The notes under the pieces: generated by a model | The model's database searches: none | The model's input: only the letters and a program-made list of their open reading frames with translations | What the model was told of the DNA's origin: nothing | Sequence record: PQ671645.1 | Reading direction: 5' to 3' (one strand) | Length of the DNA: 64,000 nucleotides | Source: Escherichia phage DCP548 | Program-made: the position numbers and the translations under genes | In this document: piece after piece, positions 3,178-16,517 of the stretch | How the letters are laid out: each line of letters starts with the position of its first letter | Position numbering within the stretch: position 1 is the first letter of the stretch

Positions 3178-3471
3178 TTATTTACGGAATGAAAGGAATG
3201 CTGGTGCTCTGAATGGAGTATCATCTTTAGAGTATTTAACTAATACGACCATTGGTACCTCTGTTTCTAAATGACCTGTCACTACACCGACAAAAATTTG
3301 ATCAGTGTGCTCAGGGTCACGAAAGTTTTTAAGAGGTTCCATAGCAATATGGAATGCACCTGGGAATACTCGATTCAATTCATCAATCACAGCTTCGTTA
3401 AAAACATCATCCGCTGGGATAGCATCTTCAACTACTAGTTCTTGACCATTAAAGCGAAGCATAGATTTCAT
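3178..3471 (-). CDS. Hypothetical protein downstream of alt
   Basis: Track ORF 3178..3543 trimmed to the internal Met (MKSMLRF) that has a GAGGA Shine-Dalgarno and avoids overlap with alt. Confidence 0.4.
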   Translation of the reverse strand: MKSMLRFNGQELVVEDAIPADDVFNEAVIDELNRVFPGAFHIAMEPLKNFRDPEHTDQIFVGVVTGHLETEVPMVVLVKYSKDDTPFRAPAFLSFRK

Positions 3472-3529
3472 AACGTTTTCCTCATGTTGTTGATGGGATG
3501 ATAGTATCACACATCCATGTGTTTGTAAA

Positions 3530-5617
3530 CTATCCTTGGACAAATTTAAACGGAACTGATTCTAAATCCATTAAAGATGCTAACAATTTCAAACCTTTAG
3601 GTGCACTAGTTTTTTCTACAAATGAGGCAAAAGATACCGGCTCATCTGATTCGATTTCACCTGTCATAGCAACTACCTCGCCTGTTTCCATGAGAACATC
3701 ACCATCATAAATGACAGCTTCATCTAACTGGTCTGAGGACATGACTTCAGCTTGAATAAATTTAAGGTTGGATTCTAAACCTGCACCAGTATCAGATGAC
3801 GCATCTGTAATTTTATTTATCTGCAAGAGAATGCCTCTAGGCAAAATAATTTCTTGCTCATTAGGGTGATTACTCAACTGTCCTGGATAAATCACGTTAA
3901 CTTTATGGGCGCCATCAATAGCCCATCCAACGTTAACACGGATTTGTTCTGGTGCATGCATAGCTGTTCTTACTTGACTAGGAGAAATAGTAACACCTTC
4001 GTCATTATTATCAATGTTAAGCTCTTTGCGAACTTCTTCAGGAGCAAGTCCAAGGGCAACGTTCTCTTTAAACCCGCCGAAAATAATAGGAGCTAGTGAA
4101 GTGGAAACATAGTTTCTGAAGTAGAATACCTTATTTTTAACCATTGCTTCGTAAATAGGCATTCTGATAGACTGAGCTCTATATAACGTTAGTCCTTCAG
4201 GTAAACGGTCTCCATTTAAAAACGCCGAATCAAGACCATCAATAGCGCGTTTAACTTCATCTTCATCTGCAACATCGTAAAAATCTGGTTTATAACGACC
4301 TAACAACATATTATTGATATCGATATACGCAGAAGAGGCATATTCACGAATAGCTCGTTTTTCAGCAACAGAGTATTGTTTAGGGTCCCGATTCATTGTT
4401 ATATTAAAGGTGCCTCTAGCCGATTCCCGTGCATAAGTATACATCACATTAGACAAGAACGCTGATTTACGTTGTTTCCAAGTTCTTTCAGATACTTCAG
4501 CTAAAACGTCGTCGGGCAGTTGGAAATTATCACGTCTAAAATCTTCAAACCATTCGTCTTTAATAGAGTCTGCAATTTCATTTGCAGCTTCAACAAAAGC
4601 AGCTAATGCTTTAACAGATGTTGTTTTTTCAGTTTTAATTTTCTTAGCAAACTTTTCTAAAGTTGGCTTAATAACACTACCATAAGAAACTTCATCGGCA
4701 AATTTAAAGGATTCATCAATACGATTATAAATCTTATTTTCGATATCAGCAACTAAAGTGCCTTTTGCTGTGGACGATGCTTGGGCTAGTACGATTTCAT
4801 ATGCTTCAGGAAGTAATTCGGCTGTAGCCGGGCCACTAACTTCTTTAGCAGAATTTTCGTATTTCTGGAATAACTCACCTTCTTGACGGTCAGCTTCTAA
4901 AGATTGACTTGCTGCAATAGCACGACGAGAAATTTTGGTGCGAGCAATAACAGGTTTATCTTTACGTTTTTCTTCTACCGCGGCAATAGAACCGGCGATA
5001 GCCGTTTCTTTGGTGACCTTTTCACCGGTCTTTTTACTCACATAAACTTCGCCAACATCAGAATCTACTTTCGTGTACAACTCTGTGTTAATGTTAGGGA
5101 TGCCTTTAATATCCTCAATGTTGGCATTTTTACGAACCATCATCACATAGGTGTGTTTACCTGTGAATTGATACATTGCCGACAATACTTTAAAACGACC
5201 ACCGGTTTTAGTAGAAACTAAACGAGCAAGAAGAGTTTGAAGCTGCTGTCCACGTCCTTTCAATTTCTTGGTAGGGAACCGGAACAGAACTGCATCCATA
5301 CGAAGAGCTTTAACCTGTTCATATACTGTATTGAAAATGGTGTTGATTGCATCAATAGGAGCAGGACCAAGGCCATTTTTCAATTCAGCGAGATTACCCT
5401 TTTCAGACAGACTCATAATAACAACATGAGCGTATTTGTCGCCAAGTTTAACTTGTTTTACAGCATCGCCTTCAGAAAGGTAAGAGAATAAGCGAACTAC
5501 GATGTTTGTATCGATATCACCAATTTTCCAGACTTGTGGAACTTTAGCTTTAGGGTTCAAATTGACGACAGGAAGACTGCCTTCAGATTCAAACACTTCA
5601 TTTAATTGTTCAGACAT
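3530..5617 (-). CDS. alt: Alt ADP-ribosyltransferase (virion-packaged; modifies host RNA polymerase)
   Basis: 695 aa (T4 Alt about 682 aa); directly downstream of DNA ligase as in T4; C-terminal region carries YRAQ and Ser-rich ART-like motifs; TATAAAT-like late promoter upstream. Confidence 0.8.
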   Translation of the reverse strand: MSEQLNEVFESEGSLPVVNLNPKAKVPQVWKIGDIDTNIVVRLFSYLSEGDAVKQVKLGDKYAHVVIMSLSEKGNLAELKNGLGPAPIDAINTIFNTVYEQVKALRMDAVLFRFPTKKLKGRGQQLQTLLARLVSTKTGGRFKVLSAMYQFTGKHTYVMMVRKNANIEDIKGIPNINTELYTKVDSDVGEVYVSKKTGEKVTKETAIAGSIAAVEEKRKDKPVIARTKISRRAIAASQSLEADRQEGELFQKYENSAKEVSGPATAELLPEAYEIVLAQASSTAKGTLVADIENKIYNRIDESFKFADEVSYGSVIKPTLEKFAKKIKTEKTTSVKALAAFVEAANEIADSIKDEWFEDFRRDNFQLPDDVLAEVSERTWKQRKSAFLSNVMYTYARESARGTFNITMNRDPKQYSVAEKRAIREYASSAYIDINNMLLGRYKPDFYDVADEDEVKRAIDGLDSAFLNGDRLPEGLTLYRAQSIRMPIYEAMVKNKVFYFRNYVSTSLAPIIFGGFKENVALGLAPEEVRKELNIDNNDEGVTISPSQVRTAMHAPEQIRVNVGWAIDGAHKVNVIYPGQLSNHPNEQEIILPRGILLQINKITDASSDTGAGLESNLKFIQAEVMSSDQLDEAVIYDGDVLMETGEVVAMTGEIESDEPVSFASFVEKTSAPKGLKLLASLMDLESVPFKFVQG

Positions 5618-7622: not shown

Positions 7623-8459
7623 TTAACCCTTAGTTGTGCCGTAACCTTGTGGAACTGCCCAATACGGAGGAACAGGATGTTCGCCTACATTAGTGTATCG
7701 CCAATGAGGCAGCATATCGGTTGGTCCTGGAGTTCGCCAGGTGTACGGATTCGACGGAGCGCCAATTTGATTAGGCCATGCACCTGGACTTGTTGCACCA
7801 GATTCTTTAAGCAAATCCGCCAATCGTTTTAAAAGGTCTTCACGATCTGAATCTGAATTATGCTCGGGTGAAACCAAACGAGATTCAATATCATCCCACG
7901 TGTGTACACGTTGTGCAGTGCGAGGAATATCATCACGTTCACCACGAGCCAACCAATAAATCGGTACATTAAGAATTTCTGCCGCATGGTCACAGTGATG
8001 AGCTAAATCGTCAACGTAACAAATCACGTTATATTTTGTTTTAGCTAGTTCAAATAATTGTTCCTTTGACGAATCATGACCACACATCATTACTTCAGAA
8101 AAAGCGCCTGGGAACAAAGCATTCAAATTAAATTGTCTATTCAATCGAGCATCAATTGAATCACCTAGCGCCGTCACGGCTACAAAATTATAGTCTTCTT
8201 TTAGTTTATTGATAACTCGAAGAGCATCCGAATAAGGCGCTAAGTAACGAATAAAATCAGAGCGATTATATTTTTCTATTAATTGTTTACCGAGGTTATC
8301 ATCGGTATTGAATAGTTTACCAGGAGAAATAAATTTTTCGTCCTGAATCATTTTTAAAATATGTTCTAATGGAAGATTATATTTTTGGGCAAAATAAGGA
8401 AGTCCAGATTGCCAGCTTAAACATACACCATCAATGTCAGTCAAAATAGTAGGCTTCAT
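7623..8459 (-). CDS. HAD-superfamily-like hydrolase with Pro/aromatic-rich C-terminal tail (30.2 position)
   Basis: N-terminal TILTDIDGV matches HAD motif I (DxDG[TV]); later ICYVDDLAHH resembles motif IV; last about 55 aa are low-complexity P/W/Y/G rich. Confidence 0.5.
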   Translation of the reverse strand: MKPTILTDIDGVCLSWQSGLPYFAQKYNLPLEHILKMIQDEKFISPGKLFNTDDNLGKQLIEKYNRSDFIRYLAPYSDALRVINKLKEDYNFVAVTALGDSIDARLNRQFNLNALFPGAFSEVMMCGHDSSKEQLFELAKTKYNVICYVDDLAHHCDHAAEILNVPIYWLARGERDDIPRTAQRVHTWDDIESRLVSPEHNSDSDREDLLKRLADLLKESGATSPGAWPNQIGAPSNPYTWRTPGPTDMLPHWRYTNVGEHPVPPYWAVPQGYGTTKG

Positions 8460-8923
8460 AAAGAGTCTCTTAATAGGTTTAACACATCAATAAATTCAGC
8501 TTCAGTTAATATTGTATCATCTTTTGTTAGGTGGCTGGCCATGCTGTGCTTCAAAATTTTTCCTTTAGAGGCTTGTAAGGCATCGCGAAACCCCTTGTTT
8601 TGGATCGCTGCTTCAAAATATGCATTTGTATATAATTCTTTCCATGCTTCAGAGTATCTTGAAAATGGAACTCCTAACCAGAAGAGAGTCCCATGGTCCT
8701 GAGCTCTTGCATAAGACCTTCCAGCTTGCTGTGCGGCCAGTCCTGACAGCCTAAATATACGTCTTTGTTGTTCAACATTTTTCACCTTACATCCTTGGAG
8801 AAATCCTTCAAGACCTCCGAATTGAATACCATCCATAACGAAAGGCCACTGGGCAAAATTACTTAATGCACATGATGGCCATCTAAAATTGCTTCTAATC
8901 TCTAACTCAGACATCTTTAACAC
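8456..8923 (-). CDS. YbiA/NADAR-like (DUF1768) protein (30.3 position)
   Basis: LSNFAQWPF...DGIQFGGLEGFLQGCK resembles the FSNFAAWP...EHYFQAQK core of E. coli YbiA; second conserved block AYFEAAIQNKGFRDAL. Confidence 0.45.
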   Translation of the reverse strand: MLKMSELEIRSNFRWPSCALSNFAQWPFVMDGIQFGGLEGFLQGCKVKNVEQQRRIFRLSGLAAQQAGRSYARAQDHGTLFWLGVPFSRYSEAWKELYTNAYFEAAIQNKGFRDALQASKGKILKHSMASHLTKDDTILTEAEFIDVLNLLRDSL

Positions 8924-9119
8924 TTATAATTTCAACATCAGCCCAATGACCATAAGCCGGTAGACGGTCTTTGATAGATAATCCACCGTCATATTTCAGC
9001 ATTTTAATTGTTTTAGTATATGGTTCAACTTTTCGGACCCATGGGCTTACATCAGTCACACGATACGTAACTTCAACCATTTCTGTACCTAACAATTTCT
9101 GGATTAATTTATTCAACAT
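8907..9119 (-). CDS. Hypothetical small protein
   Basis: 70-aa ORF in the 30.x block, overlapping neighbours by a few nt. Confidence 0.4.
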   Translation of the reverse strand: MLNKLIQKLLGTEMVEVTYRVTDVSPWVRKVEPYTKTIKMLKYDGGLSIKDRLPAYGHWADVEIISVKDV

Positions 9120-11772: not shown

Positions 11773-12105
11773 TCACTTATAAAGACATGGAATAGCTTTA
11801 TAGTGGCATGTTACGAATTTCTGTTTAATTTCTTTAGGTTGTTTAAGTCCTAAAGCCACAAATGGATGTGGAACATTTCGAATTTGTCCAACTGGTAGTG
11901 GAGTCAAATCACCGACTTCAACAAAACCTTCAGGAACATCAGGACCTACAGAATGAACTACACATAGTTCAGGAACTTCACCTTGAACACGTTTACCAAT
12001 CACAAGTCCTGATTCGGTAACTTCTTCATCACCTGCTTGAGCGGGTTCAGAAACCAGAATGACATATTCACCAACAGCACGAATTGGGAGTTGTACTTCA
12101 GACAT
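11773..12105 (-). CDS. 31: gp31 co-chaperonin (GroES analogue for capsid protein folding)
   Basis: 110 aa; near-identical to T4 gp31 along its length ([28 protein letters not shown]...[11 protein letters not shown]). Confidence 0.95.
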
Positions 12106-12162
12106 CTTATTTCCTTGTTGTTTGACGATAGATTAATAATACCATACTATTCGTAAAGCATA

Positions 12163-12471
12163 TTACATAAGAAGCAAACGTTCTACCGGAGTGCCATCAA
12201 CCGAAATTACTTTATCAAGGCGGAAAGAACGCCACTGACCTAACTTGGTGTCGAATGCTCGAACTGATTCACGAGGTTCATAACGAACTTCTGTTGCTGG
12301 ATTGTTATTTTCATATTTGACTTCAAGTTCATCTCGCGAAGCAAACATAGTGCGTACCTCGCCGTTAGCCTTTTCAAATACAACACAATGAACGCCTACA
12401 GACAGAATAGTTTTAATACGTTCACGAAGAACCATAGTTTCTTGTTCAGTTAAAATCATATTATTCACCAC
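12163..12471 (-). CDS. Hypothetical protein (31.x position)
   Basis: 102-aa ORF between cd and 31; start overlaps the cd stop. Confidence 0.5.
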   Translation of the reverse strand: MVNNMILTEQETMVLRERIKTILSVGVHCVVFEKANGEVRTMFASRDELEVKYENNNPATEVRYEPRESVRAFDTKLGQWRSFRLDKVISVDGTPVERLLLM

Positions 12472-13042
12472 AAAAGTTTCGGATTTGTTCCCAATTCAGA
12501 GAACGAAGATTATTACGAGAGTACTGAATTACTTCAATACCTGCTTGTTTTAGAATGTCTGCCCAATTTTCAGGAGATCGATCGTATAATTCTGCGTATA
12601 CAACCTTTTTAATACCTGACTGCGTAATAGCTTTAGTGCAATCAGGACATGGAGAAAGCGTCGTATATAACGTAGCACCTTCAATAGAATTACCTTTACG
12701 TGCTGCAAACAAAATTGCATTCAATTCTGCATGGATTTCATTATTAGCAGACCATGCACTATGAGCGGCCCGATGTTCTTTAGCTAAAACAAAATTATCT
12801 GCCCGTCCAAATGCTGTAGTGCCTTCTTTATGTCCAGCAACGATGACCGGGCTTGGTTTATTCTTCAACCAACCATTTTCGGATGCATGTTCACAACAGT
12901 TAACGCCACCTGCTGGTGAGCCATTATATCCAGTAGAGATAATGCGTCCATCTTTTTCAATGACGGCGCCAACTTTCCATGAACAACATTTTGATTCTTG
13001 AGAAATCAAATAAGCAATTTGAAGATATGTGCTAGCTTTCAT
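12461..13042 (-). CDS. cd: dCMP deaminase
   Basis: 193 aa (T4 Cd is 193 aa); zinc-binding deaminase motifs HAELNAI and PCPDC; T4 map position. Confidence 0.9.
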   Translation of the reverse strand: MKASTYLQIAYLISQESKCCSWKVGAVIEKDGRIISTGYNGSPAGGVNCCEHASENGWLKNKPSPVIVAGHKEGTTAFGRADNFVLAKEHRAAHSAWSANNEIHAELNAILFAARKGNSIEGATLYTTLSPCPDCTKAITQSGIKKVVYAELYDRSPENWADILKQAGIEVIQYSRNNLRSLNWEQIRNFCGE

Positions 13043-14034
13043 TATTGAACCTTATTAATATAAGTTAACAGCTCTTTAGTTTGTTCCCAACTGATGCACG
13101 CATCGGTAACGGAAACGCCATAGGACATATTATCAGAAATTTTTTGATTTCCTTCATGTAGGAATGATTCTATCATAATTCCTTTGACCAAATCATTAGC
13201 TGCTAAATTTTTACCAATACCAATTTGATTGATATAATACCCATCAGCGTTTGCATGGCTACAGTCAACCATTACATAATGATTCAGACCTACTGCACTT
13301 GCTTTGTTAGAAGCTTCTTGAATATCAGAAGAATGATAGTTCGGGCCGTTAGTCCCGCCACGCAATACGATATGCGTATTCTGATTACCTTCAGCTTCAA
13401 CAATGCCTACAGTACCATCGACGTCCATACCCATATACCGATGAGGCCAGGCGGCACTATACATCGCGTCTGTAGCTACTTTAATAGAACCATTTGTTGC
13501 GTTCTTGAAGCCTACGCACATCGGTAGACCTGAAGCAATTTCACGATGTGTCTGACTTTCAGTCGTACGGGCGCCAATAGCAACCCATGAGAAAATACCA
13601 GAAAGATACTTAATCGTGAATGGGTCTAATACTTCAGTTGCTAATGGAAGTCCCATACGTAGAAGTTTACGACACAATGTTCGTGCAACTATAAGACCGT
13701 GGTTCATATCAAAACTTCCGTCAAGATATGGATCATTTACAAGACCTTTCCAACCTACGGTAGTTCGAGGCTTTTCAAAATAAACGCGCATCACTAACAG
13801 AACATTAGGAAGACGAGTTTGAAGTTCAGCCAGACGTTTGCCGTATTCAACAGCAGCAATAGGGTCATGAATTGAACAAGGACCTACAACAATAAGTTTG
13901 CGTGGGTCTTCACCATTCATAATCGAATTAACTTGTTCGCGATGAGAAGCCACTTGTGATGCGTAAGCTTCCGACAAAGGAATAATCTCAGCCAGTTCTT
14001 TTGGAGAAATAAGTTTTCTGACGACAGGTAACAT
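13042..14034 (-). CDS. 3-deoxy-D-arabino-heptulosonate-7-phosphate (DAHP) synthase, class I-alpha (AroG/AroF/AroH-like)
   Basis: 330 aa; collinear match to E. coli AroG including VVGPCSIHDP, VMRVYFEKPRTTVGWKGL, IGARTTESQTHRE, GFKN, IVLRGG, CSHAN, ESFLHEGNQ and TDACI blocks; stop shares one nt with the cd ATG (TAATG). Confidence 0.9.
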   Translation of the reverse strand: MLPVVRKLISPKELAEIIPLSEAYASQVASHREQVNSIMNGEDPRKLIVVGPCSIHDPIAAVEYGKRLAELQTRLPNVLLVMRVYFEKPRTTVGWKGLVNDPYLDGSFDMNHGLIVARTLCRKLLRMGLPLATEVLDPFTIKYLSGIFSWVAIGARTTESQTHREIASGLPMCVGFKNATNGSIKVATDAMYSAAWPHRYMGMDVDGTVGIVEAEGNQNTHIVLRGGTNGPNYHSSDIQEASNKASAVGLNHYVMVDCSHANADGYYINQIGIGKNLAANDLVKGIMIESFLHEGNQKISDNMSYGVSVTDACISWEQTKELLTYINKVQ

Positions 14035-14154
14035 AACAATCCTTAGGAGATATAAACAGATTCTGATTCAACAATACCTTTAACCGGATTAGACAGGCTA
14101 AGTTGGTAGTGCTCAGATTTATGACCATTCACGATAGTAATGAGATAGCTCTCA

Positions 14155-14391
14155 TTATAGTGTTCCATATACTCGAGTTGCTTCAACAAGACCATCACTG
14201 CCTAATTTAAGATTAGTAATTTGGTCACCATCTTTAGGATTAACGATTATGAGAAAAGAACGTGGAGATTCTTGAATAACTCGTAATGTTGCATCTTGGA
14301 AACGTTCAGACACTTTATTGATGAGTGCTTGAGCAAATTCTTTTACTTTAATCTGAAATTCGTGTACTGTAATTGGGTTTTCACTTAGCAT
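14155..14391 (-). CDS. Hypothetical small protein
   Basis: 78-aa ORF with early promoter at 14420-14449 upstream. Confidence 0.45.
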   Translation of the reverse strand: MLSENPITVHEFQIKVKEFAQALINKVSERFQDATLRVIQESPRSFLIIVNPKDGDQITNLKLGSDGLVEATRVYGTL

Positions 14392-14419
14392 TTCTATTTC
14401 CTCATTTGTTGGTAGAGTT

Positions 14420-14449
14420 ATAGTAACACAACTCCACCATGTTGTAAAC
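14420..14449 (-). promoter_or_regulatory. T4-type early promoter upstream of ORF 14155..14391
   Basis: -35 GTTTAC (plus 14444-14449), 18-bp spacer, -10 TACTAT. Confidence 0.45.
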
Positions 14450-14451
14450 CA

Positions 14452-14727
14452 TTAAATTGCTTTGCATTCAATTTTTTGTGTACCGAAATTGATATCACAT
14501 TGGATAACTAAATCACCGTCAAGATCAAATACCACTATGACGTGTGCAGACCCAGGGAGAAGAGTAATAGCAATAGAATCTACTTGGTCTGGGAGCAAAG
14601 CATTGAGTACATGAGTTAGTTGAGCATGAACTCTGAGTTCGGCTGCATTATCAAGCACTTCAAACATATTATTGGCAATAATCTGACTGAAGACTACCTT
14701 TACAATTTCAGAATAAGTTGGGAACAT
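14452..14727 (-). CDS. Hypothetical small protein
   Basis: 91-aa ORF in the cd-pseT interval. Confidence 0.45.
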   Translation of the reverse strand: MFPTYSEIVKVVFSQIIANNMFEVLDNAAELRVHAQLTHVLNALLPDQVDSIAITLLPGSAHVIVVFDLDGDLVIQCDINFGTQKIECKAI

Positions 14728-14734
14728 AATTACC

Positions 14735-14959
14735 TCAGTGTACAGTATTTACTTTAACTCGAACAACAAATCGCTCGGTCGGTTCACCTACAGGAACAAA
14801 CTCTACATGATATTCGCCTTTGTAACGAGTATTCAGATCATTACGAATTCCTGTGAGTTTGTTTATTAATGTAGGACTCATATTAAGTCCCACTAGTTTA
14901 CGAAGCATTTTGTATGCTTCATCTTCGATTTCATGATGTTTATCGTACATAGTTTTCAT
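14735..14959 (-). CDS. Hypothetical small protein
   Basis: 74-aa ORF in the cd-pseT interval. Confidence 0.45.
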   Translation of the reverse strand: MKTMYDKHHEIEDEAYKMLRKLVGLNMSPTLINKLTGIRNDLNTRYKGEYHVEFVPVGEPTERFVVRVKVNTVH

Positions 14960-15130
14960 TTAACCATTCAATTGCCTGGTCGACGTTATCAAATATACCG
15001 CCGTCCAAACGTTCTTCATGCTCATAGTCCAGCACATCAATACCGAACCGTCCATTTACTAAAGGCCAGGCTACAAACAAATATTCTTTATGCTGTTCGA
15101 TGGCCTCAACCACTTCATATAATCGTTTCA

Positions 15131-15131
<1 letters not shown>
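14940..15131 (-). CDS. Hypothetical small protein
   Basis: 63-aa ORF whose start overlaps the pseT stop. Confidence 0.4.
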
Positions 15132-16217
<1,086 letters not shown>

Positions 16218-16218
<1 letters not shown>

Positions 16219-16517
16219 TATTTTATTCCTAAGAAAATTTCAAGAATACGAATGTTATGCTCGCGCCGGTCTTTATTAATTTCAACAACGTTTTTATTAA
16301 TTGACGTACTTCTAACGTTTGAAGAAATAAATTTAATCATATGACTTTTGAGTTGTTGCAAATCCAACCCTTTTTCTTTAGCAGCTTTACGAAGAGCTTT
16401 ACCTGCTTCATCTAGTGCCTTTGCTGCATCTTTGTCATAATTGCCGAGTGACATTCCACGACAGATATCAATATACTCATCAGACCGTTTGATGTAATTC
16501 TCTAGTAATGTTTTCAT
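16218..16517 (-). CDS. Hypothetical protein
   Basis: 99-aa ORF with early promoter cassette 16546-16575 upstream. Confidence 0.45.

Follow-up and report, generated by a model that had tools for sequence, protein, structure and literature searches.

The question raised by this locus is what a lytic coliphage gains from its own gene for DAHP synthase (DAHP being 3-deoxy-D-arabinoheptulosonate 7-phosphate), the enzyme that sets how much carbon flows towards aromatic amino acids, folate, quinones and siderophores. The gene lies on the minus strand at 13042..14034 of the stretch of Escherichia phage DCP548 (sequence record PQ671645.1) that we analysed, which is 64,000 nucleotides long and is referred to as the window throughout. 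From the observations described below, we hypothesize that the gene is expressed early in infection and that its product is an active DAHP synthase that probably no longer responds to Phe, Tyr or Trp and would feed the shikimate pathway of the host. If a lytic coliphage does carry such a deregulated copy, T4-like phages would reprogramme not only nucleotide metabolism but also the biosynthesis of amino acids.

Identity and distribution of the phage enzyme

The open reading frame (ORF), which on direct reading has the length of 330 residues and the stop codon overlapping the start of cd that the initial annotation had given it, encodes a type I-α DAHP synthase. Its product matches Pfam PF00793 (DAHP_synth_1) with an E-value of 2e-74 and 250.3 bits, far above the cut-off of 25.5, over positions 8-269 of the 270 in the profile, and it also matches NCBIfam TIGR00034 (aroFGH; 426.8 bits, cut-off 173.2) and PRK12755 (453.6 bits, cut-off 343). 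The best match in the PDB is E. coli AroF (6AGM, E-value 1e-104); the enzyme of Neisseria meningitidis and E. coli AroG come next. In alignments with the MG1655 enzymes the phage protein is 51% identical to AroF, 47% to AroG and 44% to AroH. It falls below the isozyme-specific cut-offs of both the AroG equivalog NF006723 (361.8 bits, cut-off 568) and the AroH profile NF009396 (383.4 bits, cut-off 463). Given these identities and the failed isozyme cut-offs, both the label "AroG-like", under which the gene had first been described, and the "Tyr-sensitive AroF" of GenBank records are over-specific; the protein is slightly nearer to AroF.

All the residues expected of an active enzyme are retained. 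The protein contains the motifs GPCSIHD (with C53), KPRTT (residues 88-92), GWKGL, CSHAN (H260), ESFLHEGNQ (E289) and TDACI (D311), in which the metal ligands C53, H260, E289 and D311 correspond to C61, H268, E302 and D326 of AroG. The residues that bind phosphoenolpyruvate (PEP) and erythrose 4-phosphate (E4P), namely R83, K88, R90, T91, R156, K177 and R225, correspond to AroG R92, K97, R99, T100, R165, K186 and R234, and alignment with AroG, AroF and AroH shows that P89, G154 and A155 are retained as well. Among 123 aligned homologues, comprising 25 sequences of the phage clade described in the next section and 98 cellular ones, 11 catalytic or substrate-binding positions are invariant in every one of the 64 sequences inspected at these positions, which include all 25 phage sequences. 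An AlphaFold2 model built with 46 homologues as input (mean predicted local distance difference test score, pLDDT, 94; predicted template modelling score, pTM, 0.92) contains the (β/α)8 barrel and the β6a/β6b hairpin (strands 198-203 and 209-214), and it superposes on the solved DAHP synthases 1KFL, 1GG1 and 4HSO with a TM score of 0.96 and a root mean square deviation of 1.4-1.5 Å. The phage protein thus shares with E. coli AroF, AroG and AroH (6AGM, 1KFL, 1QR7) the fold, including the hairpin, and identical metal and PEP/E4P residues, and differs from them by small deletions at about AroG 282-286 and 310-312 and by a shorter C-terminus, in addition to the differences described in the next section. 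With profile matches, alignment and model all in agreement with the earlier description of a class I enzyme with an intact active site, we infer that the phage enzyme is competent for the metal-dependent conversion of PEP and E4P to DAHP.

The gene is widespread among relatives of the phage. The 2.4 kb around it are 99.4% identical to the Escherichia phages HX01, SSE1 and pEK20 and 99.3% identical to ST0, all of the genus Mosigvirus in the Straboviridae. A tblastn search for the phages that share it, one of the checks proposed initially, found the protein in 212 phage records, in 139 of them at 95% identity or more (98-99% in these near-identical records). The nearest DAHP synthases outside Mosigvirus are those of Kanagawavirus (Entb_45, PEi20/26) at about 77-78%, followed by those of Kagamiyamavirus EcS1, Winklervirus X20, Erwinia phages and Klebsiella Marfavirus at 66-69% and of Proteus Bragavirus at about 58%. 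Most of these records name the product phospho-2-dehydro-3-deoxyheptonate aldolase, DAHP synthase, AroG or aroF. The protein matches PHROG 5045 (E-value 1.6e-181, with residues 1-330 aligned to positions 8-337 of the 341 in the profile), a family of the category "moron, auxiliary metabolic gene and host takeover", and the Straboviridae copies in this family (HX01, ST0, Bas47, PEi20, X20, Marfa, PM2 and others) are the same gene at the same locus between pseT and cd, those from other genera being 55-78% identical to the window protein.

We stress that this gene was known before. Many records annotate it, it belongs to a PHROG family of auxiliary metabolic genes (AMGs) and it has been discussed in print, and it is therefore not a discovery: the genome paper of phiC120 includes a phage DAHP synthase in passing (PMC8022965), and a 2025 study of Klebsiella M5al phages treats the copy in Kanagawavirus KLB31 as an amino-acid AMG and hypothesises a role in the production of aromatic amino acids (PMC11845039). 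The discovery value of the locus is accordingly modest, databases and papers having recorded both the gene and its likely role. What we add is a remodelling of the feedback site throughout the phage clade, with a truncated N-terminus, the boundaries of the module that carries the gene together with a scar of a foreign cd.2, and an orthologous early promoter, of which the signature of the allosteric site, the truncation and the boundaries were not found in searchable papers. These additions make the hypothesis of deregulation concrete and cheap to test.

The inhibitor pocket of the phage clade

A database search returned 23 clusters of 319-343 residues, at 55-98% identity, that we assigned to a phage clade, after which the matches step abruptly to cellular proteins of 341-388 residues and at most 55% identity. 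Where we checked their context, the divergent members of the clade sit in T4-like contigs. The 25 phage sequences, counting the window protein and the sequence P0032, were monophyletic in 60 of 60 neighbour-joining (NJ) bootstraps, and the clade lies outside the E. coli isozymes in the NJ tree, at about 50% identity to any cellular enzyme.

We scanned every column of the alignment for positions at which the phage and the cellular consensus differ and each is at least 85% conserved. Only seven columns qualify, and all of them lie in the inhibitor pocket. In AroG numbering, with the cellular residue first and the phage residue and its own number after it, they are position 150, P to I (I141); 151, Q to K (K142); 155, D to G (G146); 156, L to I (I147); 180, S to P (P171); 209, F to Y (Y200); and 223, T to A (A214). 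Five of the seven are among the inhibitor-contact or feedback-resistance positions given in PMC9529685, an overlap with a hypergeometric P of 2e-7 over all positions and 3e-6 over conserved columns only. The phage residues at AroG positions 150, 151, 155, 180 and 209 are kept in all 25 members of the clade save for one exception each at 150, 151 and 155; of the 98 cellular homologues, 99% have Q151 and 98% have S180. In the cellular enzymes, Q151 (Q152 in AroF) and S180 (S181 in AroF) bind the main chain of the inhibiting Phe or Tyr, D155 forms a salt bridge that stabilises the inhibitor site, and P150L, S180F and F209A/S are feedback-resistant variants (PMC9529685); AroF itself becomes insensitive to Tyr on deletion of Ile11 or on changes at P148 or Q152 (PMC5791370).

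The N-terminus differs as well. Before a conserved proline (P11 in the phage protein) there are 8-12 residues in the phage clade and 16-53 in the cellular enzymes, and in the comparison with AroF, AroG and AroH alone the window protein is 7-9 residues shorter (10 against 17-19). It has no counterpart of AroG residues 2-9 and therefore lacks counterparts of AroG D6 and D7 and of AroF N8. Both an N8K variant of AroF and a truncation of seven N-terminal residues are reportedly resistant to Tyr, a finding ascribed to Jossek et al. in 2001.

Taken together, the pocket signature and the short N-terminus predict that feedback inhibition has been lost or re-tuned, and the phage DAHP synthase is most likely insensitive to Phe, Tyr and Trp. 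That a phage copy might escape the feedback inhibition of the host had been a guess of the initial annotation, and it now has support from the sequence comparison. The clade would in that case hold a natural recipe for feedback-resistant type I-α DAHP synthases, of practical interest for the engineering of the shikimate pathway.

We looked for a co-varying partner of the lost D155 salt bridge and found no co-variation, because the Arg partner (AroG R127, phage R118) is retained; the "K127" of PMC9529685 appears to be R127 in the AroG numbering used here. With relaxed criteria, the scan also picks out, among other changes, L130C, F144V, S160V and K273G. AroG K273 is invariant in the 98 cellular homologues and lies five residues after the metal-binding His; it is Gly in 84% of the phage clade, corresponding in the window to G265 (about 13240..13242).

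Two other systems invite comparison. A phenazine gene cluster has a DAHP synthase of its own, PhzC, that is insensitive to feedback (PMC8772962). PhzC shares with engineered AroG and AroF (S180F, P150L and Q151 variants, and AroF ΔIle11, P148L and Q152I) and, on our reading, with the phage enzyme the logic that release from aromatic amino acid feedback lets a dedicated demand draw carbon into the shikimate pathway. The changes in the phage enzyme fall at positions mutated in feedback-resistant AroG and AroF, although they are natural, multiple and chemically unlike the laboratory mutations, and the insensitivity of the phage enzyme is a prediction; PhzC, for its part, is a type II enzyme of a bacterial cluster, unlike the type I-α phage enzyme. 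Aeromonas phage HJ05 (79 kb) also encodes a type I DAHP synthase with intact catalytic residues, annotated as hypothetical at 3399..4562 of the retrieved locus. At 38% identity, with 37 residues before the conserved Pro and in an unrelated genome context, it represents an independent acquisition. This enzyme likewise lacks Q151 and S180, reading A-H-P-F-P-V-T at the seven signature positions, and its altered pocket may reflect a convergent loss of the inhibitor site.

Probable early transcription and proposed role of the enzyme

The initial annotation had placed the gene between cd and pseT, where T4 has only small cd.x ORFs. This locus stands, and the insertion point can be refined to between cd.2 and cd, cd.1 being absent in this lineage (Table 1). 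The order in the window is pseT, three small ORFs, a promoter-like site, cd.2, a 41-residue ORF, the DAHP synthase gene and cd; that in T4, which has cd.1 to cd.5 and no DAHP synthase, is pseT, cd.5, cd.4, cd.3, the promoter Pe133295, cd.2, cd.1 and cd. The syntenic order pseT...cd.2-DAHP synthase-(cd.1)-cd is found in Mosigvirus, Kanagawavirus, Kagamiyamavirus, Winklervirus, Marfavirus, Bragavirus and a metagenomic T4-like contig, with a cd.1 homologue after the DAHP synthase gene in X20 and EcS1. The cd protein of the window is 96% identical to that of RB69 and 73% identical to that of T4.

Table 1. Positions in the window of the DAHP synthase gene, its putative signals and its neighbours.
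Feature	Position	Strand	Basis or remark
DAHP synthase gene, type I-α, phage clade	13042..14034	-	330 aa + stop, ATG start; ORF, profile matches, catalytic residues
Shine-Dalgarno sequence AAGGA, few bases 5' of the DAHP synthase ATG (14034..14032)	14044..14040	-	read from sequence
cd (dCMP deaminase), ATG overlapping the DAHP synthase stop	12461..13042	-	Pfam dCMP_cyt_deam_1, E 1.5e-26
cd.2 homologue (DUF7320) of 78 aa; opens the presumed early transcription unit	14155..14391	-	profile matches
41-aa ORF, partial duplicate of the C-terminal half of cd.2	14043..14168	-	phrog_15876, E 5e-32
Sigma-70-type promoter TTTACA-17-TG-TACTAT, orthologue of T4 early promoter Pe133295	14420..14448	-	consensus scan
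pseT (polynucleotide kinase/phosphatase), upstream landmark	15131..16030	-	HAD_PNKP + AAA_33
Direct repeat, right copy, 13 nt, ATAATGAAAGCTA, at DAHP synthase stop / cd start	13033..13045	-	sequence comparison with RB69
Direct repeat, left copy, ATAATGAGAGCTA, 12/13 identical, at end of cd.2	14146..14158	-	sequence comparison with RB69

The promoter-like site, about 390 nt upstream of the DAHP synthase gene, matches closely by eye the region in which Pe133295 is annotated in T4, between cd.3 and cd.2, the shared sequence reading ATTTAATGGTTTAC...GAGTTGTG..TA.TAT. We found no terminator-like site on the minus strand across 12300-16300, and the stop codon of DAHP synthase overlaps the start codon of cd such that in GTT CAA TAATG AAA GCT the last A of TAA (13042) is the A of ATG. 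Because of this overlap, the lack of a terminator-like site on the strand and the Pe133295 orthologue upstream, early co-transcription of the gene with cd, as had been proposed from the TAATG overlap alone, is likely. A search for a pattern of the MotA-box type gave no convincing middle promoter immediately upstream of the gene, and the window as a whole shows no enrichment of the pattern (21 found against 14.5 expected); one match, TGCTTTA...TATTAT at 12136..12160 on the minus strand, lies just upstream of the gene 31 homologue (11773..12105). The whole 64-kb window contains no tRNA genes by ARAGORN and no Rfam family at the gathering threshold. By collinearity, the window corresponds to about 22.5-86.5 kb of phage Bas47, whose two annotated tRNA genes lie elsewhere, at about 145 kb.

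In the mechanism that we propose, the Pe133295 orthologue would drive early transcription of cd.2, the 41-residue ORF, the DAHP synthase gene and cd as one unit, in which the TAATG overlap may couple translation of DAHP synthase to that of cd. The enzyme made in this way would combine an unchanged active site with a pocket in which the residues binding the main chain of Phe or Tyr are replaced (Q151 to K, S180 to P), together with changes (P150 to I, F209 to Y, D155 to G) at positions that can be mutated to feedback resistance or that stabilise the site. With host transcription off, the cell would be unable to derepress aroF, aroG and aroH, and the phage enzyme would then channel carbon, free of feedback control, into the host's own shikimate pathway, sustaining aromatic amino acids and, secondarily, other products of chorismate for virion synthesis. 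In 150 kb of the curated genome of the close relative Bas47, no other shikimate gene and no folate-biosynthesis gene is annotated, only td and frd, and the phage would therefore supply only the flux-controlling first step. We regard this chain as a whole, an active early DAHP synthase that is unresponsive to Phe, Tyr and Trp and feeds the host pathway, as reasonably probable.

Several considerations count against it. Within the phage clade the substituted residues of the pocket hardly vary, which is easier to reconcile with a pocket still in use, or under structural constraint, than with one that has simply been abandoned. The natural changes (Q to K, S to P, P to I and F to Y) differ from the Q151 variants, S180F, P150L and F209A/S that have been tested in the laboratory, so that insensitivity is an extrapolation from them. 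The cellular set against which the signature was defined consists of the top 98 matches to the phage protein and is not a balanced sample of DAHP synthases, and in the searchable literature we found no phage DAHP synthase for which biochemical, genetic or expression measurements are reported. Finally, the gene is dispensable: its site is empty in RB69, in about 10 other Mosigvirus records and in 9 records at about 78% identity, and T4 does without the gene.

The near-invariance of the pocket is also what speaks for an alternative that is possible but unlikely, namely that the pocket has been re-tuned and not lost. The enzyme would then still be allosteric and respond to a protein partner from phage or host or to another ligand, for example an acid without the α-amino group (chorismate, prephenate or phenylpyruvate) or a nucleotide, such that entry into the shikimate pathway would follow the state of the infection. 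I141, K142, G146, I147, P171, Y200 and A214 are near-invariant in a clade whose members are 55-98% identical overall, and so are D137, P138, I166, G169, L170, S193 and G202, in a clade in which only 34% of all positions are invariant. The β6a/β6b hairpin that forms the pocket is kept and modelled at high confidence, and the change of Gln to Lys with the loss of acidic residues at the N-terminus suggests that partners of an amino group were exchanged for a cationic side chain. The argument is, however, partly circular, in that the signature columns were chosen for their conservation. Structural constraint could also account for it, the region of the inhibitor pocket lying at the tight-dimer interface in AroG. 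A more specific proposal, that I141, K142, G146, I147, P171, Y200 and A214 form with the short N-terminus a new and strictly conserved regulatory pocket that binds a different effector or partner and conveys a phage-specific signal, is distinctly unlikely in our view; if true, it would represent a virus-evolved allosteric variant of a central metabolic enzyme.

The main benefit could lie in cofactors derived from chorismate, a role also raised by the initial annotation, with p-aminobenzoate (pABA) feeding the folate needed by Td, Frd and dCMP hydroxymethylase and for the baseplate. The gene shares a presumed early unit with cd and lies on the same strand as nrdAB, td and frd, some 10 kb away from them, and where Phe, Tyr and Trp are abundant the host enzymes would be inhibited, so that a deregulated enzyme would matter most for products of chorismate other than amino acids. 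Folates, however, are recycled cofactors of which the T4 baseplate requires only a few per virion, and by our estimate the argument is quantitatively weak; the DAHP synthase gene comes with no pab or fol biosynthesis gene, and T4 and RB69 have the same folate enzymes without a DAHP synthase. We consider this role improbable.

Very little weight can be given to the idea that the enzyme serves as a sink that drains PEP or E4P and so rewires central metabolism, or that it joins PEP to another phosphosugar such as arabinose 5-phosphate, a possible product of these phages with arabinosyl-hydroxymethylcytosine (arabinosyl-hmC). Type I-α DAHP synthases accept some alternative aldose phosphates weakly, K273 has become Gly in most of the phage clade, as described above, and Mosigviruses encode a putative phosphosugar isomerase and UDP-arabinose enzymes. 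Against this, the KPRTT hallmark and every residue for E4P, PEP and metal are unchanged, RB69, which makes arabinosyl-hmC, lacks the gene, and Marfavirus and Bragavirus, for which arabinosylation is not reported, carry it. A link to arabinosyl-hmC sugar metabolism was rejected on the same two grounds, the lack of the gene in RB69 and its presence in genera other than Mosigvirus. In Bas47, a putative hmC-arabinosyltransferase and a set of UDP-arabinose biosynthesis genes that includes the phosphosugar isomerase are found at 73120-74220 and 97272-101379, and we found no evidence tying these arabinose genes to the DAHP synthase.

Origin and history of the module

The composition of the gene is that of the phage. 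Its GC content is 40.7%, and 28.5% at third codon positions (GC3), where the neighbouring phage genes have a GC3 of 15-32% and E. coli aroF, aroG and aroH have a GC content of 52-53% and a GC3 of 51-57%. At the DNA level, the sole bacterial match is 65 nt long. Between genera, the ratio of nonsynonymous to synonymous divergence (dN/dS) is 0.18-0.21, with dS saturated, indicating that the gene is under purifying selection, and the identity of the DAHP synthases (67%, 67% and 58%) tracks that of the flanking cd, pseT, gp31 and rIII, a parallel that fits long co-residence in T4-like genomes. To the notion that the gene is an assembly chimera with host DNA, or a decaying and non-functional remnant, we give practically no credence: we found no point in its favour, and this composition, the absence of an E. 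coli-like DNA match, the intact ORF and conserved synteny in 212 phage records and a dN/dS of about 0.2 all stand against it. The statement that it is no stray host fragment thus holds, given also the same context in the 139 near-identical records and in other genera.

We also searched for a cellular donor. The best cellular matches are 50-55% identical and scattered over Kiritimatiellota, Planctomycetota, Pseudomonadales and enterobacterial AroF. The NJ sister of the phage clade is P0095, a JGI metagenome sequence (8001..9083 of the retrieved locus) in which a bacterial chromosomal DAHP synthase stands beside uvrC and a gene for a CDP-alcohol phosphatidyltransferase and has its own altered pocket, A-G-D-V-P-H-T at the seven signature positions. 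Its sister position could be due to long-branch attraction or could hint at a donor lineage. Because the cellular matches are scattered and P0095 is an ordinary bacterial chromosomal gene with an odd pocket of its own, no donor can be named.

Two copies of a 13-nt direct repeat, ATAATGA(A/G)AGCTA, bound a module of 1113 bp. RB69, the type phage of Mosigvirus, has no DAHP synthase gene, and its cd.2 and cd abut at ...ACACTATAATGAAAGCTAGC..., with a single copy of the repeat (about 8246..8258 of the retrieved RB69 locus). A single copy, and hence an empty site, is also found in JK36, JK42, moha and some mar005P1 records; the name mar005P1/mar005p1 is borne by records of both the filled and the empty state. 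In total, the empty site is contiguous in 20 records, 11 of them Mosigvirus (at least 93.8% identity) and 9 at about 78% (WG01, QL01, dhaeg and relatives), and the site is filled in 139. Since RB69 and the other empty-site records lack it, the DAHP synthase gene is accessory and dispensable. Natural relatives such as HX01 and Bas47 on the one side and RB69, JK36 and moha on the other differ by the 1113-bp module.

The module carries a further trace of its history. A stretch of 120 nt separates the left repeat from the DAHP synthase gene and encodes the 41-residue ORF, which is annotated as bas47_0049 in phage AlbertHofmann and has a weak match to the C-terminal part of the cd.2 family phrog_1504. 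This ORF resembles the cd.2 of Entb_45 (Kanagawavirus; 19 of 31 residues identical) more than the cd.2 of the window itself (5 of 9) and is probably a recombination scar, a fragment of a foreign, Kanagawavirus-like cd.2. On the simplest reading of these comparisons, the HX01-type Mosigvirus lineage would have acquired the module from a Kanagawavirus-like phage by recombination, with one crossover within cd.2 and a second where cd starts. A precise loss of the module would be equally compatible with the flanking repeats.

Several names given to these genes in related records are misleading. The product of cd appears as "ribD riboflavin biosynthesis protein" or "tRNA-specific adenosine deaminase", the gp31.1-like SH3 protein (12163..12471) as "tail fibers protein", that of cd.2 as "olfactory receptor-like protein", and the DAHP synthase as "Tyr-sensitive", for which its sequence gives no support.

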